Source: Candidatus Nomurabacteria bacterium
GTDB taxonomy: Bacteria; Patescibacteriota; Minisyncoccia; Phycocordibacterales; UBA10002
Assembly (NCBI GenBank): GCA_943349725.1
Contig: CALQZP010000001.1
Location: 5,401 to 69,400 of the forward strand
Reading direction: 5' to 3'
Length of the DNA stretch: 64,000 nt
Part shown: positions 2,763-63,016 of the stretch, piece by piece
Position numbering within the stretch: position 1 is the stretch's first letter
How the letters are laid out: every line of letters starts with the position of its first letter
Made by a program: the position numbers and the translations under genes
Notes under the pieces: generated by a model
Told to the model about the DNA's origin: nothing
What the model saw: only the letters and a program-made list of their open reading frames with translations
The model's database searches: none

Positions 2763-2817
2763 GTCATTCCAGCGGAAGCGGGAATCCATTCTGGATCCCC
2801 ACTTTCGTGGGGATGAC
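2763..2817. repeat. twin-hairpin palindromic element (gtcattccagcgRaagcKggaatcc family), copy 1
   Basis: Two adjacent stem-loops with GNRA-like loops; near-identical 5' half to the element at 51065-51140. Confidence 0.6.
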
Positions 2818-2846
2818 ACTAAAGTAATTCCGAAATTACCTTAGTG

Positions 2847-7611: not shown

Positions 7612-8298
7612 AAAAACTTTCCAAAAACTCTCAAAGATGATGTTCCAGTTAAACTTTGACAAGCCGATCTTCCGTTCGGTAAAGGTAATCGGTATTTCAC
7701 AAATGCGAAATCCCGCTTTGTGCGCCAGGTAGGTGGTTTCAATCTGGAAGTTGTAGCCAACCGAACTCAAGGCAAGGAAGTCTATGGCTTCAAGTGCTTC
7801 TTTCCGGAAACATTTAAATCCACCGGTAAGGTCGTGGTACGAGAGACCCAAAATGATGCGCGCGTAGAGATTACCGAACTTGCTGATGAGTCTGCGAGAA
7901 AATCCCCATTGCTCTATCTTTCCACCCGGCACATACCGCGAACCGAGTACTAGGTCGGAGGCTTTTGAAGCAGTGAGCAGAGCAGGAATAACGAGAGGGT
8001 CGTGCGAGAGGTCGGCGTCCATTTGGATAATGCGCGAGCCCGCTGGAGCCTTAGAAAGCACCTCCTTAAACCCCGCCACATACGCGGTCCCTAGTCCCTG
8101 CTTCCCTTCCCGATGCAACACGCGGAGGGGATACTTCTTCGCAAGTTCGTCAGCAATCTTTCCGGTTCCATCGGGAGAATTGTCGTCCACCACCATAAGC
8201 TCAAGTTCGGGTATTTGCAACGCAAAAATCCTCTCCAACAAAATGGGGAGGTTCTCACGCTCATTGTAGGTTGGGATAACAATGAATGTCTTTGACAC
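7591..8298 (-). CDS. polyprenol/dolichol-phosphate mannosyltransferase (GT2, Dpm1/Ppm1-like)
   Basis: 235 aa; IVIPTYNEREN, MVVDDNSPDGT and the DAD motif are typical of the GT2 Dpm1 family. Confidence 0.85.
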   Translation of the reverse strand: MSKTFIVIPTYNERENLPILLERIFALQIPELELMVVDDNSPDGTGKIADELAKKYPLRVLHREGKQGLGTAYVAGFKEVLSKAPAGSRIIQMDADLSHDPLVIPALLTASKASDLVLGSRYVPGGKIEQWGFSRRLISKFGNLYARIILGLSYHDLTGGFKCFRKEALEAIDFLALSSVGYNFQIETTYLAHKAGFRICEIPITFTERKIGLSKFNWNIIFESFWKVFLLRLRG

Positions 8299-8690: not shown

Positions 8691-8791
8691 TAATTTGTTG
8701 TGGTGAACGCCGCATCGTTCACCTGTTAACCCAAAGAACTATCGCGCAAAGCGGTGCGCGAGCCCGTTTTAGAAAACGGGCAAAATGTTAC
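8691..8791. repeat. about 100 nt direct repeat, copy 1 (palindrome gtgaacgccgcatcgttcac plus cccgttttagaaaacggg hairpin)
   Basis: Roughly 96% identical to 9528-9624; overlaps the stop codon of the 8788-9393 gene. Confidence 0.75.
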
Positions 8792-9393
8792 GGGTCGCAC
8801 TCCGCGAGGGAGTTGACCCTGGGAACCTCCGCGGGCGGATCGAGGAGAAGTTCCTCGACCGTCGGGAGTGAATCCTCCCCCCTCCGGAGTAGCCGTGGGC
8901 AGTCCACGACCACGAAGCCTCCGTTTACCAACGCCTCCTTGTTGAGGTGCCGGTTAACCGCGGCGAGCGGCCAAAGGGGGTGGATGGGCGACGGGGAGGG
9001 GTCCCACTCCCCGTGGAGCTCGTCCCAAAGCTCGCGGTACTCCCAGTCTTTCGCAGGGCGCTCGTGCGCCCGGCAGTGCTCGTTCCGCTCAAGCACATTC
9101 GCCCTCTTGGTGAGGGCCATTGCCGTTGGCACCCGGAGGAGCGGTGCCGGAATACACAACCTTTCGTCCCCACTTTCAAGGCGGAGGACAAAGAGGTCGT
9201 AGTGGGCCTGACTGGCGCACTCGCCGGCAGGGTCGTCCGTTTCGAGCTCGACGACGAGCCCCTTCGCCGCCTCTTCACCCCTGAACAGGGCGTCAAGGAG
9301 GAGGCAGAAGACCGTGTTTGGCAGGGTGTAATTTTCCCCTGCCCCGATGTCTTTCGCCCTGTCCGCGAGGGCGAAAAGTTTTTTGATATCCAT
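8788..9393 (-). CDS. hypothetical protein, GC-island paralog family (copy A2)
   Basis: Translation is about 70% identical, with conservative substitutions, to 33938-34564; start at MDIKKLFALADRAK is preceded by a GGAAAGGAAGT RBS. Confidence 0.65.
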   Translation of the reverse strand: MDIKKLFALADRAKDIGAGENYTLPNTVFCLLLDALFRGEEAAKGLVVELETDDPAGECASQAHYDLFVLRLESGDERLCIPAPLLRVPTAMALTKRANVLERNEHCRAHERPAKDWEYRELWDELHGEWDPSPSPIHPLWPLAAVNRHLNKEALVNGGFVVVDCPRLLRRGEDSLPTVEELLLDPPAEVPRVNSLAECDP

Positions 9394-9527
9394 ACTTCCT
9401 TTCCGGCGCAACATCGCGCCAAGAAGTTTTTTTCTCGATAGGCCGACGATTGGTTTCCACACACATGGAAATCCTCGGCCTAATGAAGTCCAGCACCAGA
9501 AAATCCTTCGATTTGTTGGTGCTGGAA

Positions 9528-9624
9528 ATTGTTGTGGTGAACGCCGAATCGCTCACCGTTAACCCAAAGAACTATCGCGCAAAGCGGTGCGCGAGCCCGT
9601 TTTAGAAAACGGGCAAAATGTTAC
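9528..9624. repeat. about 100 nt direct repeat, copy 2
   Basis: Near-identical to 8691-8791. Confidence 0.75.
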
Positions 9625-10119: not shown

Positions 10120-10749
10120 TTTCTTCCTTCTTTTTCTCTTTTTTTTGTTGTTTGTTTCTTTGAACCCTGTTTAAAGTCGATGATTCAACGACTTTTGCCC
10201 AATGCTTACACAACATCGAGCTACCGAAACGACCGATTTCTCGGTCCTACCCAGAGCCTCCAGTTGGGCCAAGGGTGCTCTATCTCGGAATCGCAGTTAA
10301 TGAAATGCGACCCCTCTTGCTCTGCCGACACAGGTCGGCAAGGCGAAGAGGAGTAACATTTCGGAACGAATGACCGCTCCGCGTCTTCCTGTTTGAGGTT
10401 TTATCTTCACCTCAAACTTTCTTCTGCCTATTCGGTTGTCAAAGAATCAAACATACAGTATACCATGTACCATATATAAAGTCAATAGGTGGGGAGGGCT
10501 GAAAAAGCTATGATTAGAGCCATGAAAAACTCCGCCTTTATTGATGCGCAAACTGAAAAAGGAAGTCAGAGAGAAGATAACAGGACTTATGTACACCCCT
10601 CCCGCGCTAGACGCGTGTGTGCTCCCCTTGTTAGGGGAGAATTAAGACAAAGTTGCGTAAGTCCTAGATAAATTATATGAATAATCTTAATCATAAAATC
10701 GGCAGAGGTTGGAAACGAAAACGCACCGCGCAGACACGAGGACTGCGAG

Positions 10750-17017: not shown

Positions 17018-17845
17018 GTGGAATCTTTCAAAAATAAGTGCATTGCGCTACGAACGAAGGGGCTCACCCTAAGTCAAATAGTAGCCCGAACAAAACGCCC
17101 GAAAACGTCAGTGTATTTTCATATACGGAATATTCATTTACCCGAAGACCGAAAACAGGAAATACGCCGTGCAGCAACACAAAGATTTATCAATTACAAC
17201 AAGAGTAGAAAAGGTAAAAGCAGGATGAATCGTCATCCAATCCCGTTTGAGAAATGGAACGTGGCTCTTGTGTCCTTAGTGGGACATTTAATCTTTGACG
17301 GGGAAATAAAACACGGCGGATGCGTATATACAAATAGAAGCCTAGCGCTTCTTAAGCACGTTGCTGCGTGTATGCAAACGATATACCCGTTTGCGCCAAA
17401 AAGATACGAATCACTTCCAGGAGTTCATAAAATTGGATACCACAACGTAGAACTAAATGATTTCTTCAAGTCAAAAGCGAAGGAATTGATTGTGAAAATC
17501 AAATGTATGGAAAGAGAACTTCAACGTTCGTTCCTCCGAGCTTTTTTTGACGATGAAGGTTCCGTATACTTTATCGGCAAACGCAGAGCGATTAGAGGCT
17601 ACCAACACAATGCTAAAATGCTACACCTTGTGCAGCATCTGCTAAGAAACTTCAGCATAGAAAGCAAGGTGGACAGTAAATACAACGAAGTTACCATTAC
17701 CCGAAGAGAAAATATCTTACAATTTGCACAAGAAATAAATTTCTCCAAGGGACTGCGGATAAATGGGAATCGTTCAAACAGTATCTGGAAAGAGTCGCTT
17801 GAAAAACGTGAGTTGCTTCGGCGAGCACTTGCGTCATATGAGTGA
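17018..17845 (+). CDS. free-standing double-motif LAGLIDADG homing endonuclease-like protein with N-terminal HTH
   Basis: 275 aa; two LAGLIDADG-like motifs (LVGHLIFDGEI and FLRAFFDDEGSV). Confidence 0.6.
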   Translation: MESFKNKCIALRTKGLTLSQIVARTKRPKTSVYFHIRNIHLPEDRKQEIRRAATQRFINYNKSRKGKSRMNRHPIPFEKWNVALVSLVGHLIFDGEIKHGGCVYTNRSLALLKHVAACMQTIYPFAPKRYESLPGVHKIGYHNVELNDFFKSKAKELIVKIKCMERELQRSFLRAFFDDEGSVYFIGKRRAIRGYQHNAKMLHLVQHLLRNFSIESKVDSKYNEVTITRRENILQFAQEINFSKGLRINGNRSNSIWKESLEKRELLRRALASYE

Positions 17846-28489: not shown

Positions 28490-28693
28490 TTACTTAAAAT
28501 CTTCATCTCGAAGATTCGCTTGCCGAAGGATTGATTTGAATGTGCCGATAGGCACCTCCTTTCTGTTTGCAGGAACAATCACCACATACCCGTCTTTTTC
28601 GAATTTAGCATGACTGCCTTTTTGAGAAATAAAAGTAAAACCGCATCGCAAGAGAACGCACTCAATATGACGTGAGGAGTAAAATTTAGGCAT
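28490..28693 (-). CDS. HicA-family mRNA interferase toxin
   Basis: 67 aa; RCGFTFISQKGSHAKF...IGTFKSILRQANL matches the HicA/YcfA fold. Confidence 0.7.
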   Translation of the reverse strand: MPKFYSSRHIECVLLRCGFTFISQKGSHAKFEKDGYVVIVPANRKEVPIGTFKSILRQANLRDEDFK

Positions 28694-28904
28694 ACCGCAA
28701 AGAAGTTGACACCAACTCCGGTCGAAGCACCTCGGTCACTTTTGGTTTCCGGGAGGATTCGAAGTAAAGTTCAAGAGCCTCGGCTAGATTTTTAAGAGCC
28801 AATTTTTTGCTTTCTCCAAAACTGGAAACATCCACGTTGAGGCATTGAGCTACGTAGTATTTCCCCTCTTTCCAAACTATATTTTTAAGATTTAAAGTTT
28901 TCAT
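28686..28904 (-). CDS. HicB-like antitoxin (N-terminal RNase H-like domain only)
   Basis: MKTLNLKNIVWKEGKYYVAQCLNVDVSSFGESKKLALKNLAEALELYF is the HicB_like motif; 8 nt overlap with hicA. Confidence 0.6.
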   Translation of the reverse strand: MKTLNLKNIVWKEGKYYVAQCLNVDVSSFGESKKLALKNLAEALELYFESSRKPKVTEVLRPELVSTSLRYA

Positions 28905-28915
28905 AACACTAGAAG

Positions 28916-29131
28916 TTATATCACATCCTTTAAGGAGCGCCCTCTTTTGAATCTTCCCTGCGCAAAATCCCTTTGGCTTCTCATGACAGACTGGTATAAC
29001 TGCTCTTCTTCCCAAGCTCTCACCGCGTCCCTGAAAAACTCGCTAACGGAAGCGTAATTGCCTTCTTTAACCGCTATGTCCACATTGCGCTTGAGTGAAA
29101 CCGGCATTGAAATGTTTAGTGTTGTTCTCAT
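28916..29131 (-). CDS. ribbon-helix-helix (CopG/ParD-like) DNA-binding protein
   Basis: 72 aa from the internal Met; MRTTLNISMPVSLKRNVDIAV is a beta-strand then helix-helix RHH pattern. Confidence 0.5.
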   Translation of the reverse strand: MRTTLNISMPVSLKRNVDIAVKEGNYASVSEFFRDAVRAWEEEQLYQSVMRSQRDFAQGRFKRGRSLKDVI

Positions 29132-29700: not shown

Positions 29701-29895
29701 TTTTTCACCTCCTTCCGAGAATTTGAGGATTTAAACCCAATGAACCCGCGACAATCTTTCAGTCTGCGAGCTCAATAAAGTGGAGAATTTTATAACCCAC
29801 GCGAGATTCTTCCGAAACTCGCAACCTTGTCGAGCACCAATATCTTTTGGTGCTCGACCTGCGGACTATTAAGGGAGGTCCGCACTCCGTGTTTG

Positions 29896-30600: not shown

Positions 30601-31275
30601 CTAGGAATTACAAAATTCCTGGTAGGCCGTTTTTGCCTCCGATTCAAACATGGTGATGGAGCCGAGACACCCATCGTAGGTGCCGCAGATTTCTACCCAT
30701 GCCGGAATCGGCAGTGACACTACCTTCTCCGGTGTTTCAATCTCCCGCACCTGCGGAAACTGCGCCGCTTTTAGGCGGAACATTTCCTTCATCTGCTGAG
30801 CCGAAACCCAAAAAATACTGGGTCTGAAGCTTACACTGACCCGACTTGATCCGACTATCGGCTCAATGAGGATATCGAACCTGATAGAATCCGGCCACAC
30901 TAGGGTCTCTGGGTTTTTATAGCCCGGACCGGACGCGCGGCCATAGAACCCCACGGACGCCAGCTCCTCGGGAGTGAGGGGAACTGCACTTCTCGCCGAG
31001 AGCTCCCTTCGCAAGGCGGCTTCCCACTCTTCGTACTTTCTGCCACTCCCTCCGTCAGGAACCGGCCCATTAATCTCAACGAGCAACTTGCTCGCTGAGT
31101 CGTCCAGCCCCGAAGCGACTGCTTCTTCGGCTAGATGGGTGCATTCGCGCCCCATGTGATACGCGGCAAAGAGCGCCGCGTGAATTGTTGATTTAATCCC
31201 ACTTTTCTTGGCAGCAGGTGAGCCGGTTTTGTTTGTGTTGTTCATAGCAACCTGCTTCCGATAATTCGGAAACAT
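30601..31275 (-). CDS. hypothetical protein (island B)
   Basis: 224 aa ORF; the likely true start is MNNTNK at 31245, which has a GGAAGCAGG RBS. Confidence 0.45.
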   Translation of the reverse strand: MFPNYRKQVAMNNTNKTGSPAAKKSGIKSTIHAALFAAYHMGRECTHLAEEAVASGLDDSASKLLVEINGPVPDGGSGRKYEEWEAALRRELSARSAVPLTPEELASVGFYGRASGPGYKNPETLVWPDSIRFDILIEPIVGSSRVSVSFRPSIFWVSAQQMKEMFRLKAAQFPQVREIETPEKVVSLPIPAWVEICGTYDGCLGSITMFESEAKTAYQEFCNS

Positions 31276-31496
31276 ATTGCTATGAACAACGACTCTATGA
31301 GCCGACCAACACTATTGCCCGGCTCAATAAAGTCCAGCACAACCGACCAAGGAAGTGCTGGGTAAATGTTGGAGAATTAACCCATTCTTTCTGAACAATT
31401 CTCCTTTTGTTCATAAAGTCACAAGAGCCCGCAATACCGCTCTTGCATAACTTCTACCAATCACGCATTGCGACGCGTGTCCGATTTTAGTCGGGA

Positions 31497-32474
31497 TTAT
31501 TTGAGATGGCGGGCCACCACCTCGACCACCTGCTCGACCGTCAGGGTCGAACTGACTCCTTGCGGAGAACCCCCAATAGTCGGCGACCCGCCCCAGCCGG
31601 GTTCAAGCCCCGCCAACTCGGCGAGTGCTGCTTTGATGTCCGCGAACCTGGCCGCCTCAAACGCGCACACCGTAAACTTACGGTGTGGTTCGCCCACACC
31701 GAGCTTGAAACTCGGATTGAGGGCGACCACCACAGGGGCCAGGGAGTACCCGACCATCGTGGCGGCACGATGAGTGGACTCCACGACAGCAATTTTGTCG
31801 TCTGCCGTGGTCAAGTGTTTGATGGCACCCGACTCCAGCGCGCCGACCATCTCGTCGCGCTCCTTCTCCACCTGCTCGCGGTAGCGAGCAGGTTCCTCGC
31901 CGGTCAGAAGCCACTTTTCCATCGTGGCGACCCGCTCGGCGAACGGGACCTTGAAGTCCGCCACCGCCGCGTTGATTGCGGCGAGCGGACGAGAGCTTTC
32001 GGCCGAGGCGCTCTCCTCCGGCCACGGATTGTCCGCGGTCGGAAGCGGTCGAGGCCCGGGATAACCACCCCAAGCAAATTTATCGGCCTTGGCGACCTTT
32101 TTCACCTGCTCCTGGCAAAAAAAAGTTGGCATATCACAACACCCACCACTGCTCTCCAACAGATGGTGACGAATCCCAATGACTGACATTGCCCCGACGG
32201 AGTCCAGATCGGGTCGCACGGTGGCCAGCGTTGTCCATTCCGCCGGCATTTCAATGCCGATCACGACCTCGATGGCCGACCTTCCAGCGTTTCCGCCGGT
32301 GTGTTGGGGGTCAATGTTCCCCAGTGAGCACCGTGCCGCCAATGCGGGCACGGTGACCTCGATCCCGAGAACCGGCCCCGATGCAAAGATCGCGTCGTTG
32401 GCCGCTTGAGCGGATGGGAGGTTTCGGGGATCCAGCACCGCGAATTTATAATTCTTCATAACAATTTCACTCAT
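31497..32474 (-). CDS. hypothetical protein, 325 aa (island B)
   Basis: Long GC-rich ORF with conserved-looking Gly-rich segments; no family recognised. Confidence 0.45.
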   Translation of the reverse strand: MSEIVMKNYKFAVLDPRNLPSAQAANDAIFASGPVLGIEVTVPALAARCSLGNIDPQHTGGNAGRSAIEVVIGIEMPAEWTTLATVRPDLDSVGAMSVIGIRHHLLESSGGCCDMPTFFCQEQVKKVAKADKFAWGGYPGPRPLPTADNPWPEESASAESSRPLAAINAAVADFKVPFAERVATMEKWLLTGEEPARYREQVEKERDEMVGALESGAIKHLTTADDKIAVVESTHRAATMVGYSLAPVVVALNPSFKLGVGEPHRKFTVCAFEAARFADIKAALAELAGLEPGWGGSPTIGGSPQGVSSTLTVEQVVEVVARHLK

Positions 32475-32849
32475 CTCAAAATAAAAACAAAGCTGTATCA
32501 GTTTTTTCGATACGGTCTTTGTCTTTCATACTGCGCGGGTTTCTATGTCGCGCAAATATGTCATCTCGAATTTTTCGACAAGTGAGCGGGGGTCTAGACT
32601 GTCCCCATTCACTGGTCGAAGTAAGTGAAATTACTATGAATACCTGTCTACAGACCGGCAAAATTTGTCGGCCTGATAAACAGGAGAAGTTTTTAACCGA
32701 AAACTTCTCCACATAACCCTTGCGATTATTTTTCTCGGGAAATCGTCCTTCCCAACGCACTGCATGCGAGGCTCACGCTTTAAAAAGGTGACAACAATTA
32801 GTGCTTCTGTAGCGAAAGTTGCACTATCTTTCGGATGTCTTTCCATCAG

Positions 32850-33326: not shown

Positions 33327-33740
33327 TTACGAGATGAGGACCCCCTCAATCTCGCTCCTGGCCACCGCAAAAGCGTCGGCGTCACAAACCCCGGTCTCCT
33401 CCGGGATTTGCCGTAGGAATTCCTCGTACCTCGAAAAATTCTTTTGGTCGAGACTTTTTGCCTCGACCAACCACAACACGCCTACGCGTGTGTGGATTTT
33501 AACCGCGGCCATAAGGCCGCGGCCGCTCATCGACTTCCACCTGAGCATTCTCAGGTTTCGTTCGGTGAACTGCATCCATGAAAAACCAGTTGAACGGTTT
33601 TCATGGTTTTCGGGCTCCGAACGCCCATTCCACAGCCTATCGGCTCCTTGGTGTTCGGTCCCAACAAGAACTTTGTCGGTGGGGGCATCGGCCCCCAGTT
33701 GATTGCACGCCATGCGACTCAAATCGCATAGCGACGCCAT
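33327..33740 (-). CDS. hypothetical protein (island B)
   Basis: 137 aa from MASLCDL; carries the same conserved 5' leader as 8788-9393 and 33938-34564. Confidence 0.45.
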   Translation of the reverse strand: MASLCDLSRMACNQLGADAPTDKVLVGTEHQGADRLWNGRSEPENHENRSTGFSWMQFTERNLRMLRWKSMSGRGLMAAVKIHTRVGVLWLVEAKSLDQKNFSRYEEFLRQIPEETGVCDADAFAVARSEIEGVLIS

Positions 33741-33937
33741 TTTATAATTTTCACACTTCCTTTCTGGCGTTACACGCGCCAAAAGTTTTCTTGATGGGCC
33801 AACGACTTTTCCGCACACACGGAGAATTGCAAGCCCAATAAAGGGGAGGAACGAAAACCCTTTCGTTCCTCCTTTGAAACCTTAACCTTTTCGCACCTTT
33901 AAAAGTGCGAGCGCGTTTTAGAAAACGCGCAAAATGT

Positions 33938-34564
33938 TTACACTCTCACCGCTTCTGGGTGGAGTGCCCAGTACTCGGCCGTACTGGAAAGTCCCAGCTC
34001 CGCCGGAGGCGGGTTGACGAGAAGCTCCTCGACCGTCGGGAGCAGCTGCCCCTTCCCCTTTAGTGACCGCGGGATCTCCGCGACCACAAACCCTCCCCGA
34101 ACCAGCGCCTCTTTGTTGAGGTGCCGATTGACCGCAGCGAGCGGCCAATAGGGGTGGATTGGGGAGGGAGAAGGCTCCCACTCCCCGTGGAGCTCATCCC
34201 AGAGCTCCGATAGCTCCCACTCCCCAGGAGCCTCGTGCTCCCGAGAGTGTTCCACTCGGCCGACTCGATTGGCCCGCTTCGTCATCGCCATGGCCGTCTC
34301 CACCCGGAGGAGCGGTGCCGGTATGCATAGCTTTTCGTTTCCGCCCGGCAAGCGGAGAACGAAGAGGTCGTAGTACGCCTGGTCGGCGAAATGACCCTCG
34401 TCGTCCTCAGTTTCGAGGTCGACGACGAGTCCCTGCGCCTCCTCGTTGCCCCTGAAAAGGGCTTCGAGAAGAACGCAGAAAACTGCGTTGGGGAGGGAAT
34501 AATCTTCCCCTCCCCCAATTGTCTTCGCCCTGTCTGCAAGGGCGAAAAGTTTTTTAATGTCCAT
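33938..34564 (-). CDS. hypothetical protein, GC-island paralog family (copy B2)
   Basis: Paralog of 8788-9393 (DIKKLFALADRAK...LCIPAPLLRV...ELWDELHGEW...PLAAVNRHLNKEALV). Confidence 0.65.
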   Translation of the reverse strand: MDIKKLFALADRAKTIGGGEDYSLPNAVFCVLLEALFRGNEEAQGLVVDLETEDDEGHFADQAYYDLFVLRLPGGNEKLCIPAPLLRVETAMAMTKRANRVGRVEHSREHEAPGEWELSELWDELHGEWEPSPSPIHPYWPLAAVNRHLNKEALVRGGFVVAEIPRSLKGKGQLLPTVEELLVNPPPAELGLSSTAEYWALHPEAVRV

Positions 34565-34745
34565 ACTTCCTTTCCGGCGCGACACTGCGCCAAACAGCTT
34601 TCTCTATAGGCCGACGATTGATTCCGCACACACGGAGAATTGCAAGCCCAATAAAGGGGAGAAGTTTTTAACCAAAAACTTCTCCCATAACCCCATGCAA
34701 CAATTTATCCATCTAATGGAAAGGAAGTTGCTCTTCCTTTGCGCT

Positions 34746-35552: not shown

Positions 35553-36136
35553 TTTTCCTTTCCGGTGTATCTCTACACCTTTTTTGTTTTTTTATTTCTT
35601 CGAACCCATTCGGATCCAAAAAAACGGAATCGTCTTTGCGATCCCTCTTACCCCACCAACCTTAAGTCTTTCGATCTATCAATAAGTGGGGCGAAGAGGA
35701 ATAACATTGCGGAACGATTTGTTCCACGTTTTCCTAATTCGCTATTCTGTTTTCAAAGTTCATCCTTACTCTCTCCTTTCACTTCCGCGCAACTCTCTCT
35801 TCCTTGCCCGAACAAGTCTTCTTGTTTTAGGGTAATTCAGATTGCGTGGCTTCCTGGTGTAAGGACATTTTGGAATACAAAGCGGGTTAGACCTTATATT
35901 CCATCGATGTCCTTGCGAGCCTTCTCGCGAACAACGTGCGGTGAGTTTGCCTGTAGGCATAGCTCCTTTATTTGGGTAGGTTTCGAAGCCACACAAATAT
36001 AGAGCACTCACCATTCGAAACGAGACTTTCATAAGCTTGCTTCTCTCCCCACTCTCTCTTCTTTCTACGCTTAGTCCCTTGCGGGAAGGTCGTAGTACCC
36101 TCGAGCACTAACTTGTGCGTGCGCTATAATTGCAAT

Positions 36137-36391
36137 ATGTATTATGTATACTTTTTGCAAAGTGGTGTTGGTAAAACCTATATCGGCTATACCAACGACC
36201 TGAAGCGCAGACTCGCACAACATAACTCCTCGCAAAGTACCTACACTCGAAATCAAAAGTGGCGACTTGTGTACTACGAAGCTTACGCTTCTAAAGCTGA
36301 TGCCGTGTGTCGAGAAAAATGTCTCAAGCAACGCGGTCAAGCTGTACGCCAACTTAAAGATCGTGTATCTGAATCTTTACGCACAAGTTAG
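36137..36391 (+). CDS. GIY-YIG nuclease family protein
   Basis: MYYVYFLQSGVGKTYIGYTNDLKRRLAQHN is a canonical GIY-YIG (URI) motif. Confidence 0.75.
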   Translation: MYYVYFLQSGVGKTYIGYTNDLKRRLAQHNSSQSTYTRNQKWRLVYYEAYASKADAVCREKCLKQRGQAVRQLKDRVSESLRTS

Positions 36392-36648
36392 TGCTCGGCT
36401 AGAGGCGGGGAGCAAACTTATGGCTATCTCCTCAATGAACCATTCGACAAGCTCATGGCAAGCTATCTGACTCACCCATTCACCTGTCTTTACTCTCTGG
36501 GCAAAATAGTACAGGTTTTCTTATGTTCTGTCAATTATCTATGTCAGATAAGCCTATTTAGGCGTAACACACTCAAAAATATGACTTATCCACAGTCTAT
36601 ATTTGTCATAGATTTGTAACAAAAACAGATTAATGTTAGGATAGCTCC

Positions 36649-37461
36649 ATGGAAAATATACAATATGAAAAGTTTTTAGGGGAGCTTGGACTCAACAAAG
36701 AGCAGTCACTCGTCTACGAATCGCTCTTAAAAAACGGGCTTATGCCCGCTAGAGTTGTAGCCCAAAAATCAGGGGTCAAGCGAAGTCTTGCTTATAAAAT
36801 ATTAGAGCAGCTTATTTCGCTTGGTTTGGTGGAAAAAAGAGACAATATCGGGAAAATTACCCTGTTCTTCCCTGCCCACCCGGGCAAGCTTCGAGAATTC
36901 CTGCAAAAGCGCGAGGAAGCCATAAAAACCGCCGAGGCTTCGCTCGGCGGGATTATGGGGAAAATGGTGTCGGACTTTAATTTGCTTTCAGGAAAACCCA
37001 ACGTGCAATTCTACGAAGGGCCGGAGGGGATGAAAAAGGTGTTGGAAGATTCTCTTTCGGCGGAAAGTGAAATCTATTCATATTCTGATGTTATTTCGGT
37101 ACAACAATATATCCCCACTCTTAACACCGAATACATGGCCAAGCGGACCAAATTTAATGTAAAGAAAAAAATACTTTTTTTTGATTCTAAAGAAGCACGC
37201 GCTCTTCTTCCTAAAATATACAAACCGGATATCACGGAATATAAATTCATTCCGTTCAAAACGGAACCGCCTCATACTGTCATGCAAATGTATGACAAAA
37301 AAGTATCGTACATCACCCTTGCCAAAGAACAAATGATCGGCGTCATCATTGAGGACGCGAATATTTATTCACTTCATAAATATCTCTTTGAACACCAGTG
37401 GAGTACTAGTCCCGAACTCCCAATAGGAGCGGTTTCTGCGGTCGAGAAAACTCTTCAATAG
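36649..37461 (+). CDS. TrmB-family transcriptional regulator
   Basis: 270 aa; N-terminal winged HTH (LNKEQSLVYESLLKNG...ILEQLISLGLV) and TrmB-like C-terminal domain. Confidence 0.6.
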   Translation: MENIQYEKFLGELGLNKEQSLVYESLLKNGLMPARVVAQKSGVKRSLAYKILEQLISLGLVEKRDNIGKITLFFPAHPGKLREFLQKREEAIKTAEASLGGIMGKMVSDFNLLSGKPNVQFYEGPEGMKKVLEDSLSAESEIYSYSDVISVQQYIPTLNTEYMAKRTKFNVKKKILFFDSKEARALLPKIYKPDITEYKFIPFKTEPPHTVMQMYDKKVSYITLAKEQMIGVIIEDANIYSLHKYLFEHQWSTSPELPIGAVSAVEKTLQ

Positions 37462-40582: not shown

Positions 40583-40596
40583 TCACTCAACCGAAT

Positions 40597-40866
40597 ATGC
40601 GTATTCGCTTTACGGAAGAGTTCAAACAGCGGTATAACCAATTGCCGCGCATTCTCCAAAAGAAAGCTGACAAGCAACAGCGTCTTTTTCGAAGTAATCC
40701 GTTTCACCCATCTCTGAACACAGAGAAGCTCGCGCCAAAAAGCAGAGAGGTGTGGACTTTTCGCGTTGACCGTAAATATCGTATCGCTTTTAGGTTTATA
40801 GACGGAGACACTATTCTTGCACTTACGGTCGGTCCGCATGACTGGATTTACAAAATCTTTAGATGA
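40597..40866 (+). CDS. RelE/ParE-family toxin
   Basis: 89 aa; ...VWTFRVDRKYRIAFRFIDGDTILALTVGPHDWIYK matches the RelE/ParE core. Confidence 0.6.
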   Translation: MRIRFTEEFKQRYNQLPRILQKKADKQQRLFRSNPFHPSLNTEKLAPKSREVWTFRVDRKYRIAFRFIDGDTILALTVGPHDWIYKIFR

Positions 40867-43615: not shown

Positions 43616-43909
43616 ACTACTGGCTCCCCGCCTCCGCGGGGATGACACCGCTGTCCACAGGCGGTGTCACTTGCAAAAATCTGATGGTATTGATACATTC
43701 GGAGCGTTAACAATTAGAATTCGTACAACGTATGGAAGAAGATGTCGTAAATCCGGTCCCTCCCGTAGAAGGAGAAGAGGGGGATGACAAAGAAGTTGAC
43801 CCCGATATGCTTGAGGACACGTTTGATGATGTGGACCCGCTCTAACTCTCCGTTGCTAAGGTTACGGAAAGACGAGCGTACCAAAACCACCCTCTCGGGT
43901 GGTTTTTGG

Positions 43910-51037: not shown

Positions 51038-51064
51038 TAGGGCTTACACATTTCGCACTTTTCT

Positions 51065-51140
51065 GTCATTCCAGCGAAAGCTGGAATCCAGTGTTAGGCC
51101 ATTTTCTGAAGTCCTGGATTCCAGTTTTCACTGGAATGAC
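51065..51140. repeat. twin-hairpin palindromic element (gtcattccagcgaaagctggaatcc family), copy 2
   Basis: attccagc-GAAA-gctggaat hairpin plus ggattccag-ttttca-ctggaatgac hairpin; shares its 5' half with 2763-2817. Confidence 0.6.
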
Positions 51141-51182
51141 ACCGATTGAGCAGGTTCTATATAAGCTAAAAGCTCTCCTTCA

Positions 51183-59212: not shown

Positions 59213-62200
59213 CTATTCCTTCCCTTCCGCCGCCTTCAGCTCATCCTTTGCAGCCTTGATGGAGAGGAGTTGCGACGGGTCGGAGGTAATGATTTGGTCT
59301 TCGGTATAGGAAGCAATGATTTTGATGGCGACATGCTTGAGGCCCACGAAGAAGAGCCCCTCCCCTACGTCAGATTCAAGCAGGAGATATTTCTCTTCAT
59401 CCGTTAGGCTGAAAATAGTTTGGAGCTTGTCCACCACCGTTGGCGATTGCTTGAGGAGCATCTGCATTGAGGAGTTGGTGAGAATGGGGAGTCCATAGGG
59501 CGACTTCAAAAAGTCGTCCACGTCTTGAGTAATAGTAGAAAGACCGAGGTAGTATTTGCGTCCACGTTTCGCAAGGCCAAGAAGGAACGAAGCGGTGTCC
59601 TCCGATTTCATCATCCACCACGCCTCATCAATCACCATCAAACGTTTCTTGAGCTCCTTTCTGATGGAGTTCCAGATGAAGTGCATTACGATATACATTG
59701 CGGCAGGCTTCAGCTCATCTTCCATATCGCGGAGTGAAAAGACGATAAAGTTTGAATTGATGTCCACGTTTGACGGTTGGTTGATAAAGCCCGCCCACGT
59801 GCCGTGCGTATATTTGGAAAGACGCTGTACAAGCGACTCGGCTCCTTGGATTCCCGCAAGCACCAATTCAAAGTCGGAAAGAAGCGGTGGCTCTATTTTT
59901 GAGAAATCAGAGTCGGGAGTAATGTCCTTCAGCGCGTAAGTTTCGGCAATGGCGCGGTCAATCATCGCGTCTTCCTCCGCGGAAAGCCCTCCGAGGAGAA
60001 TGCGAAATAGTCCCACCAGGTTGATGATGTTTGAGCGTAGCACGTCAGCCGGAGATTCGTCTTCTCTTGGGGGCGCAAGCTCAAAAGGGTTGATATGGTG
60101 CTCCGAGTTGAGTGAGATGTTGAAGTATTTTCCGCCTGTTGCCTCCGCGAGGTATTCATACTCGCGTTCGGGGTCAATGACAATCACGTCCGTGCCGAAC
60201 ATCAGTGAGCGCAAAATCTCAAGCTTGGTCATATACGAGTTATGCACGAACATACCGCCATATCCCGCTAAGAATACTTCGTTATCCACCGTTAAATCAT
60301 AGACATATCGTTCCGTTTTGTTTGTGAAAGGTTCAATCGCCACAATCTCGTCCCACGCGAGGTCTGCAGTCGCCAACTTCTCCAGTCGCACGAGTAGCTC
60401 CCGCACACGAGGAATGTTGTTGCATAAGGAATGGTAACGGGCAGAAATGAAGGAGGACGCCTGCGTCAGCATTTCATAAGAGGTGTTGGCTTCAGGGTGG
60501 ATATGAAGGGCTGTTCGAAGTGAAGGGTTATGATACTTCATTGGCTCGCCTAAGAATTCGAATCCCTCGCTTATCGCTTCTTTGAGCTCGGGTAGTCTGG
60601 GTACGTCAATTCCCATACAGGAAAGAGCGGTAACGGCATTTGCCATTCCGGGCATCTTTCCTTTTTTCATTGTCGCAAAGCTTGAGCCGAGTTCTTTCCA
60701 TAGCAGGGCGTTTACGGCTTTGCTCTGCTTTGCCACTTTTATAATATCCGCAATGGTAGGCAATCCAGTGAGAACCCTGAAAAGAGCCCGCTTTGATTCA
60801 ATGTCCCGTATCACCATTCGTATGTCGGCAATGACTAGTTTTAACTGCCTCGGTGATGGGTTAAAGACACCACGTTTGAGGGGACTCCAATTCTTTCGGC
60901 CACGCATCGCTTTGCCGAGAAGCGCGTCAATTTCTTGAAAGAGTGGAGGAAGTCCGGGAATGATATCTACATTCGTATTTTCGGCTCGCTTCAATGTAAG
61001 CAACATCCCTTTTTTTCGTTCCGATATGAAATTGATATGTTCTCGAAATGACGACAGATTCTTCTGCCCCGATATGGTGAGCAACGAATAGTCCTCCTTA
61101 GATTTTCCGGGTATGAGCTTTTTCCTTACCGCCAAACGACTGATGACGCCAAAGTTATACAGCAAGTAGCAGAGGTCGGAGGTAAGCATTCTTGATTTTG
61201 AGACTGCGGTTATGGTCGGTCCGTCCACTCCGCCGTCACCCTCAAAATAGGCAGAGAGGAAAGCCGTCTGCGCGTTTCGTGGGCTTTCAAAAATGATGGA
61301 AGGAACTCGTTTGGTTGCCGATTTTTCTTGTAATCCGATTATGGCGAGAAACTTTACGAAAATAATATCGCTTATAACCACACTTTTCGGTGTAAGGAAA
61401 TGTTGCACTTCCAAAGTGGTAAGAGCCGTACAAACGTCCTGTATCACTTCAGGGTCAATGTTGCTTATAATCGCAACCTTCTTTCCTATAGTCCCTTCGG
61501 ACACCAAATACCCAAGTATTTTTGCAAGTGCGGGAGTGACGGTATAGAACGCGGGTAGCTTTCCTGTCCCGCTCGCGGAGATAATGAAGCACTGTGCTAG
61601 GCGAGCGTCGGTTATCTCAAGAGAAAGGCAGGCAAGTAGTTTGCGAAAATAGGAGATTGGTACGCGCCTTCCGGCGGCATACTTGTAAAGATAGCGGTCA
61701 AATCGTGAGTCAATAACCTCTGTCCTAAGCAAGCGTCTGTATTCCACCATAAGCGGTGCGACTCCGGTAACATATACACGCGAGTCCGCCATATGTTTTA
61801 GTAGATTGAGTGTGAGTGGAGAGGTTGTGCCGTTCTTTACTTCTCGTGGCAAGGGTACATATTCACCTAGACCGATATCCGCGCTCTTGGTGGCAACCAC
61901 TTCTCCCTTCCGAAGCACCAGCATATTATGGTCGCCTGTAGTTTCCACCACACGACCACTGCGAGTTTTGAAACGGTACAGTTCTTGCGGAGCGTCTTTT
62001 CGTGCCGCAACCGTTACTCTGCTCCACGTGCCCTTCATCTCTTTATCAAAGCTCCATACTTCAAGTCCTGGGTCAATAACCCCTTCTAGTTCGTGGTCAA
62101 TTTGCATCACCCCACGTTCCAAAATTGCTTCCTCAACAATATCCCCGATCGGCCGAAGTAACACTCGGTCATTTTTTCGCATGAGCACAGGTTCGTGACC

Positions 62201-63016
62201 AAGAATGCTCTTGCCCGAACCTGATTTAGCTAGGGTGATTGAGTTGTAGTTCTCCAAACTGAAGCGGTCAAAGAGAACAAGGGAAGCGTTGTGACGGTTG
62301 ATGCCGTAGAGAATGCCCTTGTTGGAAGTAAGGTCAAACGAGAGAAACGGAAACACGCTTGAAAGTGGAGAAGAGTTGAGCTTCGTGTGCACCATAAGCT
62401 CGTCGTTGCCAAGCGGAGAGGTGGAACGAAATCCTTGCTCCTGCTGAAAGAGAGCCGGTTTCATAATGACGAGTTTGCTTTCAAGAAGCGAGCGTATTTC
62501 ACTCTCGGTCTTATCAAGCTCGTTCTCATCTCCCGCATAGATGGTGAGATAAATACCGACATCAAAAAGCTTTTCCTGCGCCTGCAGAAGGTCATCACGA
62601 AGTTTCTCAAGGTCTTGGTAGGCTGTCTCAAGCATCGGGTCGCGTACGAGCCCCTTCTTCTCACGGTCCGCCATTTGACTCTGGACCTCCGCTACTTTTT
62701 TCTGGAAGGTGCGCAGTACCTTGGCGGTATCCACCGGGTGAATAAAGATACTGATGTCAAAAACCTTATCAAGATTGATAATGGGCGCGAACCAGCCTTC
62801 GGTGAGGTAACGGGGGTAGGAAATGACAAAGAATGTTCGCGTCATCTTCCCGCTCACGTTGAGCGACTTCGCCTCTATCTTGAGAGCCGCGGGGGCGATG
62901 ACATCTTGGAGTTCAAGCGTGCCAGATTGGTAAATCTGCTCGGGGAGAAATTCCGCGATATCCTTGTCCGCTTTTTTCTTGTTGAAGAAATTAAAAAACC
63001 CCATAATGTTTACCAA
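59213..63016 (-). CDS. VirB4/TraC-family conjugation/T4SS ATPase interrupted by an intein
   Basis: 1267 aa; Walker A AKSGSGK|S is split, and rejoining gives GSGKSYMTKLE; Walker B MVIDEAWWMM lies in the C-extein. Confidence 0.75.
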   Translation of the reverse strand: MVNIMGFFNFFNKKKADKDIAEFLPEQIYQSGTLELQDVIAPAALKIEAKSLNVSGKMTRTFFVISYPRYLTEGWFAPIINLDKVFDISIFIHPVDTAKVLRTFQKKVAEVQSQMADREKKGLVRDPMLETAYQDLEKLRDDLLQAQEKLFDVGIYLTIYAGDENELDKTESEIRSLLESKLVIMKPALFQQEQGFRSTSPLGNDELMVHTKLNSSPLSSVFPFLSFDLTSNKGILYGINRHNASLVLFDRFSLENYNSITLAKSGSGKSILGHEPVLMRKNDRVLLRPIGDIVEEAILERGVMQIDHELEGVIDPGLEVWSFDKEMKGTWSRVTVAARKDAPQELYRFKTRSGRVVETTGDHNMLVLRKGEVVATKSADIGLGEYVPLPREVKNGTTSPLTLNLLKHMADSRVYVTGVAPLMVEYRRLLRTEVIDSRFDRYLYKYAAGRRVPISYFRKLLACLSLEITDARLAQCFIISASGTGKLPAFYTVTPALAKILGYLVSEGTIGKKVAIISNIDPEVIQDVCTALTTLEVQHFLTPKSVVISDIIFVKFLAIIGLQEKSATKRVPSIIFESPRNAQTAFLSAYFEGDGGVDGPTITAVSKSRMLTSDLCYLLYNFGVISRLAVRKKLIPGKSKEDYSLLTISGQKNLSSFREHINFISERKKGMLLTLKRAENTNVDIIPGLPPLFQEIDALLGKAMRGRKNWSPLKRGVFNPSPRQLKLVIADIRMVIRDIESKRALFRVLTGLPTIADIIKVAKQSKAVNALLWKELGSSFATMKKGKMPGMANAVTALSCMGIDVPRLPELKEAISEGFEFLGEPMKYHNPSLRTALHIHPEANTSYEMLTQASSFISARYHSLCNNIPRVRELLVRLEKLATADLAWDEIVAIEPFTNKTERYVYDLTVDNEVFLAGYGGMFVHNSYMTKLEILRSLMFGTDVIVIDPEREYEYLAEATGGKYFNISLNSEHHINPFELAPPREDESPADVLRSNIINLVGLFRILLGGLSAEEDAMIDRAIAETYALKDITPDSDFSKIEPPLLSDFELVLAGIQGAESLVQRLSKYTHGTWAGFINQPSNVDINSNFIVFSLRDMEDELKPAAMYIVMHFIWNSIRKELKKRLMVIDEAWWMMKSEDTASFLLGLAKRGRKYYLGLSTITQDVDDFLKSPYGLPILTNSSMQMLLKQSPTVVDKLQTIFSLTDEEKYLLLESDVGEGLFFVGLKHVAIKIIASYTEDQIITSDPSQLLSIKAAKDELKAAEGKE
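60239..62209 (-). mobile_element. intein (about 657 aa) with double-LAGLIDADG homing endonuclease inside the VirB4 P-loop
   Basis: Ser1 directly after the GSGK; block B TTGDHNMLVL; LAGLIDADG motifs ILGYLVSEGT and LSAYFEGDGGV; C-terminal ...FVHN followed by Ser+1. Confidence 0.7.

Follow-up and report, generated by a model that had tools for sequence, protein, structure and literature searches.

The window analysed here, a 64-kb stretch of Patescibacteria (CPR) DNA from a metagenomic contig (ENA ERZ27280297, 89.9 kb), contains two runs of genes on the minus strand, hereafter islands 1 and 2, whose G+C content is raised and within which fall six copies of a two-hairpin element, HP1-HP2 (Table 1). 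Island proteins had no match in Pfam, PHROG, or NCBIfam, sequence searches of protein families A, B, and C against the PDB returned nothing, and a fold search with the family B protein (gene B2) was likewise without a match. Homologs of the window genes carry the label Patescibacteria. The TrmB-ruvB locus that holds island 2 is syntenic in three related loci (L004, L007, and L102), yet gene content differs, and five gene families (A-E) are common to such loci in an order that varies between genomes. One of these, family C (31497-32474 in the window), is represented in CPR lineages by over 1000 homologs with 60-70% identity, and its predicted structure (pLDDT 90) adopts a DHH/DHHA1 fold like that of RecJ, nanoRNase, and pAp phosphatase. 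Given this wide conservation and the DHH/DHHA1-like model, the island region is therefore not purely ORFan DNA.

Both islands are headed by a start element, S (motif AATGTTAYTCCTCTTCG..AAGAGGG at 35715 and 10367), and sigma-70-like promoters (10/12) lie ahead of both arrays, at 36534-36506 and 10485-10457, with no good site found inside the arrays themselves. A metagenome search with S, through which the sister arrays discussed below were collected, recovered it in 33 further contigs and in 0 viral contigs. Many arrays with S are without HP1-HP2. In some genomes S may form the 3' domain of a putative non-coding RNA of ~500 nt.

Table 1. Islands, genes, and RNA features of the window, in order of position
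Feature	Coordinates	Strand	Remarks
Island 1	~8.4-10.4 kb	-	same-strand gene array
Gene B1	8788..9393	-	201 aa from ATG 9393
HP3 and Shine-Dalgarno (SD) before ATG 9393	9394..9433	-	predicted stem pairs ACUUCU with GGAAGU of the SD
HP2, B-type, before B1	9434..9488	-	inner hairpin UCCA UGUGUG UGGA; 20.6 bits
HP1 before B1	9489..9526	-	CCAGCACC..GGTGCTGG type; ACAACAATTT just before
S, head of island 1	10287..10405	-	~80 nt downstream of sigma-70-like promoter 10457-10485
Island 2	~28.5-35.8 kb	-	same-strand array; TrmB-like regulator gene on one side, ruvB on the other
HP2 and weak HP1	29736..29784	-	CTTTAT TGAGCTCGC..GCGGGTTCA TTGGG; before 68-aa gene, ATG 29700; 12 bits
Long hairpin adjoining HP2	31237..31290	-	54 nt; 3' arm holds ATG 31245; GTTGTTCATAGCAA..TTGCTATGAACAAC
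HP1 (31335-31360, CCAGCAC type) and HP2 (31291-31334)	31291..31360	-	top model match in the window; 29.8 bits, E = 5e-5
HP1 (32683-32710) and HP2	32646..32710	-	GTTTAT CAGGCCGAC..GCCGGTCTG TAGAC; 21.5 bits
Gene with acquired family-B leader	33327..33740	-	137 aa from ATG 33740, alternative start 33713; unrelated to B
HP3, SD, and GTG remnant	33752..33789	-	GTGAAAATTATAAAA vs ATGGACATTAAAAAA; 11-codon ORF overlaps ATG 33740
HP2, B-type, before 33740 gene	33790..33843	-	covariance-model match
HP1 before 33740 gene	33845..33872	-	GGAGGAACGAAAGGGTTTTCGTTCCTCC; sequence unlike HP1 at 34657-34686
Gene B2	33938..34564	-	208 aa; paralog of 8788-9393; no Pfam, PHROG, or NCBIfam match
HP3 and SD before ATG 34564	34565..34601	-	TTGGCGCAGTGTCGCGCC and Shine-Dalgarno GAAAGGAAGT
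HP2, B-type, before B2	34602..34656	-	CTTTAT-T-GGGC..(inner hairpin UCCG UGUGUG CGGA)..GCC-TATAGAG; 18.6 bits
HP1 before B2	34657..34686	-	perfect 13-bp hairpin GGGAGAAGTTTTT..AAAAACTTCTCCC; tail CTTTATT = 5' strand of HP2
S, head of island 2	35618..35753	-	long hairpin AAUGUUAUUCCUCUUCG..AAGAGGGAUCGCA, then terminator-like hairpin 35626-35645

A leader of gene family B and its remnants

The initial annotation of this DNA had described one leader layout upstream of three genes, and this similarity survives proper alignment: the minus-strand regions upstream of ATG 9393, ATG 34564, and the 33740 gene align over ~110 nt, each with a perfect hairpin, CTTTATTGGGC..., TCGTCGGCCTAT.GAG, a TTGGCGC..GCGCC hairpin, and GAAAGGAAGT, in the order described. 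Across the three copies the leader can be summarized by two consensus blocks, C(C/T)TT(T/C)ATT(G/A)GGC... and ...TCGT(C/T)GGCC(T/C)AT(A/C)(G/A)AG. The identity reported between the leaders of the 34564 and 33740 genes was recovered over 40 nt (33809-33848 = 34622-34661, 100%), corresponding to the first 35 nt of HP2 and the last 5 nt of HP1, as was the divergence of the 9393 leader: TCCGTGTGTGCGGAA is exact in two places, and the third copy (9455-9469) carries 2 mismatches.

The same annotation considered the downstream genes non-homologous, which holds for the 33740 gene, unrelated but preceded by the family-B leader, and fails for the other two, 8788-9393 and 33938-34564, which are paralogs with 76% nucleotide and 70% amino acid identity. 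In a blastn comparison, 9488-8758 matches 34656-33907 as a single alignment of 759 columns, in which similarity begins with the opening base of the second hairpin (HP2), spans the gene, and reaches into the 3' UTR. Since leader and gene align as one unit, the leader of B1 and B2 simply belongs to what was duplicated. At the 33740 copy, a GTG (33754-33752) stands in place of the ATG and begins an ORF of 11 codons, and the resemblance to the family-B unit stops at 33740, which identifies this copy as a family-B 5' end that was duplicated in truncated form and joined to another gene. Because this third leader retains a remnant of the family-B start codon, we assign the whole to one gene family: the full ~100-nt leader is a 5' untranslated region specific to gene family B and its remnants. 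It is present three times because family B was duplicated (9393 and 34564) and a truncated 5' end was fused at 33740. A comparable arrangement was found in L008 at 13905, where the same leader precedes an N-terminal fragment (22 residues) of a B gene, after which comes a methyltransferase gene. The window, L004, L007, and L008 all retain the downstream part of the leader (HP3 and SD) with compensatory changes, HP3 pairs switching between GC and AU and between GC and CG across these four genomes. Within HP2, the B1 inner hairpin UCCA..UGGA is compensatory to UCCG..CGGA.

The sequence 3' of HP2 differs by gene family (B, the 31245 gene, and C). Between the HP2 of the 32646-32710 unit and gene C (ATG 32474) lies a "C-type" leader hairpin, TTCGACAAGTGA..TCACTTGTCGAA, and the same HP1 and HP2 unit recurs in L102 at 7764-7826. 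Related leaders had also been claimed for the 31275 and 29700 genes; both indeed carry a shorter version, consisting of a hairpin followed by ACTTTATTGAGC, although the 29700 copy has a hairpin of another type than ccagcac. Translation of the "31275" gene probably begins at ATG 31245, which lies inside the long hairpin and is also the start in the contig's own gene table, and the same start-burying GTTCAT...ATGAAC design is seen in L012 and L014. Not all junctions have HP1-HP2, the element being missing upstream of 33185 and 30431. What appears as a leader shared by unrelated genes can thus be largely gene duplication combined with a smaller general element.

Structure and distribution of the HP1-HP2 element

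The general element is shorter than the 100-nt leader and consists of a variable, terminator-like hairpin (HP1) adjoining a second one (HP2). HP1 is variable in sequence, with at least three types in the window, and its CUUUAUU tail is conserved. A consensus scan flagged three copies (33872-33845, 34686-34657, and 32710-32683) as having the form of an intrinsic terminator, so that HP1 with its tail looks like a Rho-independent terminator. The base of HP2 is nearly invariant, with 5' CUUUAU and a bulged U facing AUAGAG 3' (C-G, U-A, U.G, U-A, and A-U, then the bulged U). Its middle varies in sequence and length (36-70 nt), with a stem that covaries and a free-form tip, and the conserved halves stand 25-60 variable nt apart. 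Minimal copies, such as those of L014 and L076, are plain hairpins of 38-40 nt with one bulge. Abutting hairpins were predicted in all six window copies, with folding z-scores of -3.5 to -8.7 in five of them, while the 29700-region copy (z = -1.2) was indistinguishable from shuffles.

Of the 217 candidates from a loose scan based on the anchors only, most were background in which 2-4 of the 8 pairs formed, and we therefore relied on a curated set of 34 copies and on a covariance model, R1, built from their alignment. After trimming to a gap-free alignment, 94% of cells were paired, compared to 72% after shuffling and 35-49% when the register was slid, a percentage inflated by the choice of copies on at least 6/8 paired positions and a pairing HP1. 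In the same 34 copies the covariation score was 0.69, a value reached by 0 of 500 shuffles, vs 0.26 when shuffled. Inner HP2 pairs switch between UA and CG (25/9), between GC, AU, and CG (20/8/3), and between AU and GC (20/14). The outer five pairs hardly vary, the U.G wobble is retained in 31/34 copies, and one column pair (20/44) is broken without compensation in 9/34. The helices are rich in G.U pairs on the gene strand. No third helix that would form a three-way junction like that of a hammerhead was found between the flanks of HP1 and HP2, nor were extra conserved positions found in these flanks. Searching the leaders against Rfam 15, at the gathering score and then at E <= 10, returned only tRNAs and hairpin noise, with no family match. 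Hence the earlier suggestion of a cis-regulatory RNA is upheld as far as a structured cis RNA is concerned, one that covaries, is G.U-rich, and is co-oriented with genes, its regulatory function being a proposal.

When the window was scanned with R1 with filters off, the six island copies, all on the minus strand, took ranks 1-4, 6, and 8. Two short and weak matches outside the islands interleave with them (40592-40620, E = 0.034, and 36724-36749, E = 0.19), and all remaining matches score more weakly. This ranking indicates that the motif is not a generic promoter, being limited to six copies within the islands of the 64-kb window. Across 44 related loci, R1 yielded ~55 matches at E <= 1, of which 54/55 lie on the strand of the array, between ORFs and typically 60-250 nt before the next start. 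With P denoting the element, L078 reads S P [102aa] P [237aa] P [245aa] P [249aa] and L055 reads S [178aa] P [168aa] P [294aa] P. When genomes were scanned by pattern, with each species represented once, true copies turned up in Falkowbacteria, Paceibacterota, Saccharibacteria, and unclassified Patescibacteria (L011, L012, L014, L031, L038, and L046); of the 38 genome matches to the HP1 pattern, 32 had arisen by chance in unrelated taxa. In viral contigs the HP2 pattern matched 16 times, without HP1 or stem pairing, for ~11 matches expected by chance according to our own estimate. A phage origin was considered and rejected, as S and hammerhead patterns had 0 matches in viral contigs and HP2-pattern matches were close to chance. 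Our literature search found no paper tying hammerheads, attC, or such motifs to Patescibacteria.

Hammerhead ribozymes at equivalent junctions and competing explanations

At least 16 sister loci have canonical type III hammerheads between their genes, with the core CUGAUGA/GAAA, a UUC or GUC cleavage triplet, and the stem III CUCUGUU/AACAGAG. The Rfam model RF00008 (Hammerhead_3) matches one of these over its full length (L079, 2788-2842) with 40.7 bits and E = 1.7e-7, below the curated cut-off of 48.5. Junction flanks are homologous in both cases, and comprise a 3'-UTR block, ATAGTTCTTTGGGTT / (A/G)TAGTTCTTTGGGTT, and an HP1-type hairpin, followed by either a hammerhead or HP2. The C-type leader comes after HP2 in the window and L102, after a hammerhead in L065, and after S in L007; in L074 a hammerhead occupies the equivalent slot upstream of a C homolog whose leader has diverged further. 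Both types of junction coexist in single arrays (L012, L031, L038, L065, L067, L073, and L081). The outer stem of HP2, CUUUAU/AUAGAG, resembles stem III of the sister hammerheads, and its bulged U lies at the place of hammerhead C17. A hammerhead core was not detected in any window copy by regular expression and stem scan, nor did RF00008 match the window leaders even at E <= 10. HP2 is a single continuous hairpin rather than three helices, and includes only the outer, stem-III-like stem and an inner stem. We propose that it represents a non-ribozyme alternative to the hammerhead at array junctions, as part of a broader reading of HP1-HP2 as RNA punctuation, to which as a whole we assign a probability of about 0.5.

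This resemblance could also reflect decay, in which case HP2 would be a type III hammerhead that lost stem II and its core and became inert, with only HP1 mattering, as a terminator. The relation to stem III in position and sequence fits such an origin, as does the B-type inner hairpin UCCG UGUGUG CGGA, which is similar to stem I UCGGGA UGUGUA UCCCGA, and cryptic mutant hammerheads have been noted in repeats (Perreault et al. 2011, PMC3088659). One would not expect an inert relic, however, to retain a near-invariant base, a conserved U.G, and a bulged U, to maintain compensatory stem changes in ~50 copies from Paceibacterota, Falkowbacteria, Saccharibacteria, and other lineages, or to stand beside intact hammerheads in the same arrays. 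We consider decay unlikely on these grounds.

The junction between HP1 and HP2 also stands out at the DNA level. Homology between the paralogs starts at the first base of HP2 (9488 = 34656), HP1 types are common to different junctions (34709-34646 = 32734-32671), and gene order is shuffled. These three features, namely a sharp boundary, common HP1 types, and varying order, suggest that the junction also behaves as a recombination seam at which gene modules are reshuffled. The cassette boundary of the initial annotation thus stands as a module boundary, where the homology between copies begins, and falls as a boundary of integron type. A single-stranded-DNA recombination site like attC, used by a recombinase encoded elsewhere, would be attractive given a same-strand, ORFan-like run at a conserved locus where genomes differ in gene content and order, a homology that breaks exactly at the junction, and an imperfect hairpin, conserved at its base, bulged at one nucleotide, and variable at its tip, between same-strand cassettes. 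The bulged T is conserved and the tip varies, as in hairpins of many kinds. The attC core RYYYAAC...GTTRRRY, with its AAC/GTT, is absent, the conserved ends being CTTTAT ... ATAGAG (CTCTAT ... ATAAAG on the other strand), and no IntI or other integrase or recombinase Pfam domain was found among the called genes of the 64-kb window. In addition, G.U pairs of the coding strand become A.C mismatches on the other one, the slot is interchangeable with an RNA enzyme, and the 3' end of the paralog homology does not fall at an element. Such a site is accordingly quite unlikely.

We also evaluated whether the conserved sequence is a promoter or operator, perhaps one bound by the TrmB-like regulator or dependent on an alternative sigma factor. 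In every case an ORF follows it in the sense orientation, internal genes are otherwise without promoters, and a TrmB-family gene adjoins the array in the window, L004, L007, L100, and L102. Against this, the element also occurs where there is no TrmB, in island 1 and at several other loci, and the stem covaries, which a DNA-binding site would not need. No sigma-70-like -35/-10 pair (16-18 nt spacing) is found in any of the six leaders, and the conserved blocks are separated by too variable a distance (25-60 nt), so that the shared promoter or operator put forward in the initial annotation can be set aside as very unlikely. A candidate sigma-54 promoter in TTGGCGC..TTGCGCC, read by eye, was discarded as its spacing is one base short and it abuts the SD.

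The twister-sister, pistol, and hatchet ribozymes were found through "guilt by association" context, and HP1-HP2, possibly with flanking nucleotides, might similarly constitute a new small self-cleaving ribozyme that replaces the hammerhead. The slot and the arrays are the same, there is no match to known ribozyme families, and the outer "pairs" behave like core nucleotides (20/44 unpaired in 9/34 copies, U.G conserved). Yet the minimal copies (L014 and L076) are simple one-bulge hairpins, their flanks lack further conserved positions, and the unpaired conserved nucleotides are too few for any known type of active site, leaving this option with a marginal chance at most. Equally improbable is a selfish, REP- or MITE-like miniature repeat spread through intergenic DNA with no role for genes, since the recurrence of several HP1 types at unrelated junctions, and the 85-nt palindromes with CCAGCAC...GTGCTGG termini inserted in the L004 leader, are outweighed by a distribution of only six copies in 64 kb, all in arrays and in one orientation, by the co-orientation of 54/55 copies elsewhere with genes, by an interior that, unlike that of a MITE, is not conserved, and by viral-contig matches that do not exceed chance.

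A proposed punctuation model and its relation to known systems

Under the preferred reading, HP1-HP2 would act as RNA punctuation in a polycistronic array, most gene junctions of which carry the two-hairpin module. HP1 would serve the upstream cistron as an intrinsic terminator or as a hairpin protecting its 3' end, and HP2, which starts at the U-rich tail of HP1, would mark or protect the structured 5' end of the downstream cistron. The polycistronic RNA may be separated at HP2, whether through leaky termination at HP1 or through an endonuclease that recognizes the conserved base, HP2 being a nuclease target, a 5' stabilizer, or both, and thereby doing the job that a self-cleaving type III hammerhead would perform at the equivalent slot of sister arrays. 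Family-specific leaders (HP3 and GAAAGGAAGU AUG for B, the AUG-burying hairpin for the 31245 gene) probably set translation, and the conserved HP1/HP2 junction would double as the seam where recombination reshuffles gene modules. That the element acts on the transcribed strand is suggested by its orientation bias, G.U-rich helices, conserved wobble, and interchange with hammerheads, and by the translation-start hairpins that follow it; termination, cleavage, stabilization, and the mechanism of recombination are what we infer from these features. As the minimal HP2 (38 nt) has no obvious catalytic core, any cleavage would need a protein.

Two considerations temper this punctuation model. If termination at HP1 were efficient, downstream genes would be left without a visible promoter, and the conservation of the HP2 base could result from recent spread by recombination rather than from selection. 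The model nevertheless appears the most economical, by analogy with what was proposed for clustered hammerheads (PMC3088659). From the patterns in these sequences, HP1-HP2 is best described as a hitherto undescribed, CPR-wide two-hairpin RNA spacer that alternates with hammerheads and underlies the family-B leader. A more far-reaching scenario, improbable as a whole, would be that of an undescribed RNA-punctuated array system widespread in Patescibacteria, in which S heads fast-evolving genes, junctions carry a hammerhead or HP1-HP2 interchangeably, HP1-HP2 either cleaves itself as a new motif or is recognized by a dedicated endonuclease, with a possible link to the conserved DHH-like protein C, and modules are exchanged at the seams.

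CPR bacteria form a large uncultured share of bacterial diversity, and their gene regulation is almost unknown. If the punctuation model is correct, a conserved RNA spacer swaps with self-cleaving ribozymes at orthologous junctions, which would provide a testable handle on the expression and reshuffling of accessory genes in CPR. HP1-HP2, the S hairpin, and the large upstream RNA are also candidate structured RNAs for studies of ribozymes and RNA processing.

Several known systems share part of these features. Compared to integron attC sites, HP1-HP2 folds from the sense strand with G.U-rich helices, and it lies upstream of the gene it travels with, not downstream. RNase III processing hairpins between the early genes of phage T7, as well as 5'/3' stabilizer hairpins of bacterial mRNAs, divide polycistronic RNA into protected units; these too are intercistronic, with conserved features and defined positions, whereas HP2 can be as short as ~16 bp and its role as a nuclease target is a proposal. 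PeSL cassettes of T4-type phages (Arbiol et al. 2010, PMC2839356; Comeau et al. 2014, PMC4122927) include a strong sigma-70 promoter, whereas only a terminator-like hairpin is detectable here, and the second half of the element is instead a covarying hairpin. In both cases, short terminator-containing motifs bracket ORFan genes in hyperplastic regions and provide seams for modular shuffling, and here as well the motifs are located at break points of module exchange (9488 / 34656, HP1 types, and gene order). Clustered hammerheads flank variable genes in polycistronic (prophage) transcripts (Perreault et al. 2011, PMC3088659). HP2, without the CUGAUGA/GAAA core or stem II, is no hammerhead, and the arrays described here are chromosomal, belong to Patescibacteria, and lack a phage or integrase signal. 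Both systems nonetheless have the same overall organization, with small structured RNAs placed between the variable and mostly uncharacterized genes of a single transcription unit.

A candidate large non-coding RNA ahead of island 2

Island 2, the minus-strand gene array that lies between a TrmB-like gene and ruvB, is preceded by a sigma-70-like promoter followed by a 500–900-nt stretch without a conserved ORF, which shows high nucleotide-level conservation across four genomes (the window, L007, L004, and L102). Conserved blocks within this stretch include GTTCATTGAGGAGATAGC..CCCCGCCTCTAG and GAAAGAAGAGAG..GGGGAGAGAA, along with GTTTCGAATG, GGCTTCGAAACC, GGACATCGATGG, and AAAATGTCCTTAC, and its 3' end is formed by the hairpin of the start element S and a terminator-like hairpin. 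It had no match in Rfam. We consider this stretch a candidate large non-coding RNA. On the opposite strand, a small GIY-YIG-like ORF lies within the stem GAGCACTAACTTGTGCG ... CGCACAAGTTAGTGCTC, which only a short TTCGAAAG loop caps in L007 and L004. The ORF has been inserted into one of the loops of this candidate RNA.

The start element S, a conserved structured element located at the head of arrays, including both window islands, is a long hairpin whose base (AAUGUUAUUCCUCUUCG..AAGAGGGRUCGCA) is invariant and whose upper stems covary. This element was also found in 33 additional metagenome contigs, and was absent from viral contigs.

Coordinates of the features described (window positions unless a related locus, L, is named)
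Feature	Position	Strand	Remark
Start element S	35618-35753; 10287-10405	-	also L049-L081
Sigma-70-like promoter	36534-36506		
Candidate large non-coding RNA region	35620-36540	-	nucleotide conservation, no conserved ORF
Its counterparts	L007 8105-8640; L004 4110-4800; L102 6790-7300		
GIY-YIG-like ORF	36113-36391	+	translation read by eye alone
67-nt direct repeat	8725-8791; 9558-9624		
Diverged repeat copy	33874-33940		
Palindromic insertions	L004 4527-4612; L004 4790-4870		
Scattered palindromic repeats	2762-2819; 43620-43648; 51064-51142		outside islands
Type III hammerheads	L079 2788-2842; L067 ~2290-2350 and ~2775-2835		
Type III hammerheads, further sites	L065 ~10789; L074 ~1296; others	- (L065)	
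Protein C gene	31497-32474	-	DHH/DHHA1-like model
Antitoxin/toxin-like ORFs	28490-29107	-	three, end of island 2
TraG-like P-loop protein	59213-63016	-	intein
LAGLIDADG ORF	17018-17845	+	free-standing

Shared 3'-UTR modules, putatively mobile hairpins, and ribozymes

A 67-nt direct repeat in the window, 100% identical between its two copies and extending to ~110 nt at 94% identity, takes in, at each of two different genes, the stop codon together with two hairpins of the 3' UTR. A diverged copy carries compensatory changes (GCCCG..CGGGC vs GCGCG..CGCGC). Sharing thus extends to 3'-UTR modules. The L004 leader carries two ~85-nt palindromic insertions whose termini (CCAGCACTAACTTTTG...CAAAAGTTAGTGCTGG) match the commonest type of HP1, the variable terminator-like hairpin of gene junctions, which suggests a mobile hairpin element. 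Short palindromic repeats (TGTCATTCCAGCGGAAGCGGGAATCCAG / CTGGATCCCCACTTTCGTGGGGATGACAC) scattered elsewhere in the window bear no relation to the leader.

In sister arrays, i.e., related gene arrays of other genomes, canonical type III hammerhead ribozymes occur between genes, and at one locus (L038) S also lies directly 3' of a hammerhead. With scores under the Rfam gathering cut-off (40.7 bits at L079 against 48.5 bits), these hammerheads escape a routine scan.

Protein C and other genes of the window

The RHH-like (63 aa), 72 aa (weak DUF7387 match), and HicA-like (67 aa) ORFs that close island 2 look like antitoxin or toxin genes, based on a weak Pfam match and translations read by eye. 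Elsewhere, according to the Pfam tables of the contig, the intein of a TraG-like protein contains a LAGLIDADG domain, and a separate LAGLIDADG ORF adjoins tRNA-Lys.

Protein C, the product of one of the five gene families of the TrmB–ruvB locus, had no match in Pfam; its homologs number >1000 across Patescibacteria (60–70% identity), and its gene is frequently the next one after TrmB and the long non-coding stretch. Its predicted structure is a confident DHH/DHHA1-like model, for which Foldseek matches included RecJ2, pAp phosphatase, and nanoRNase (E about 2e-4).
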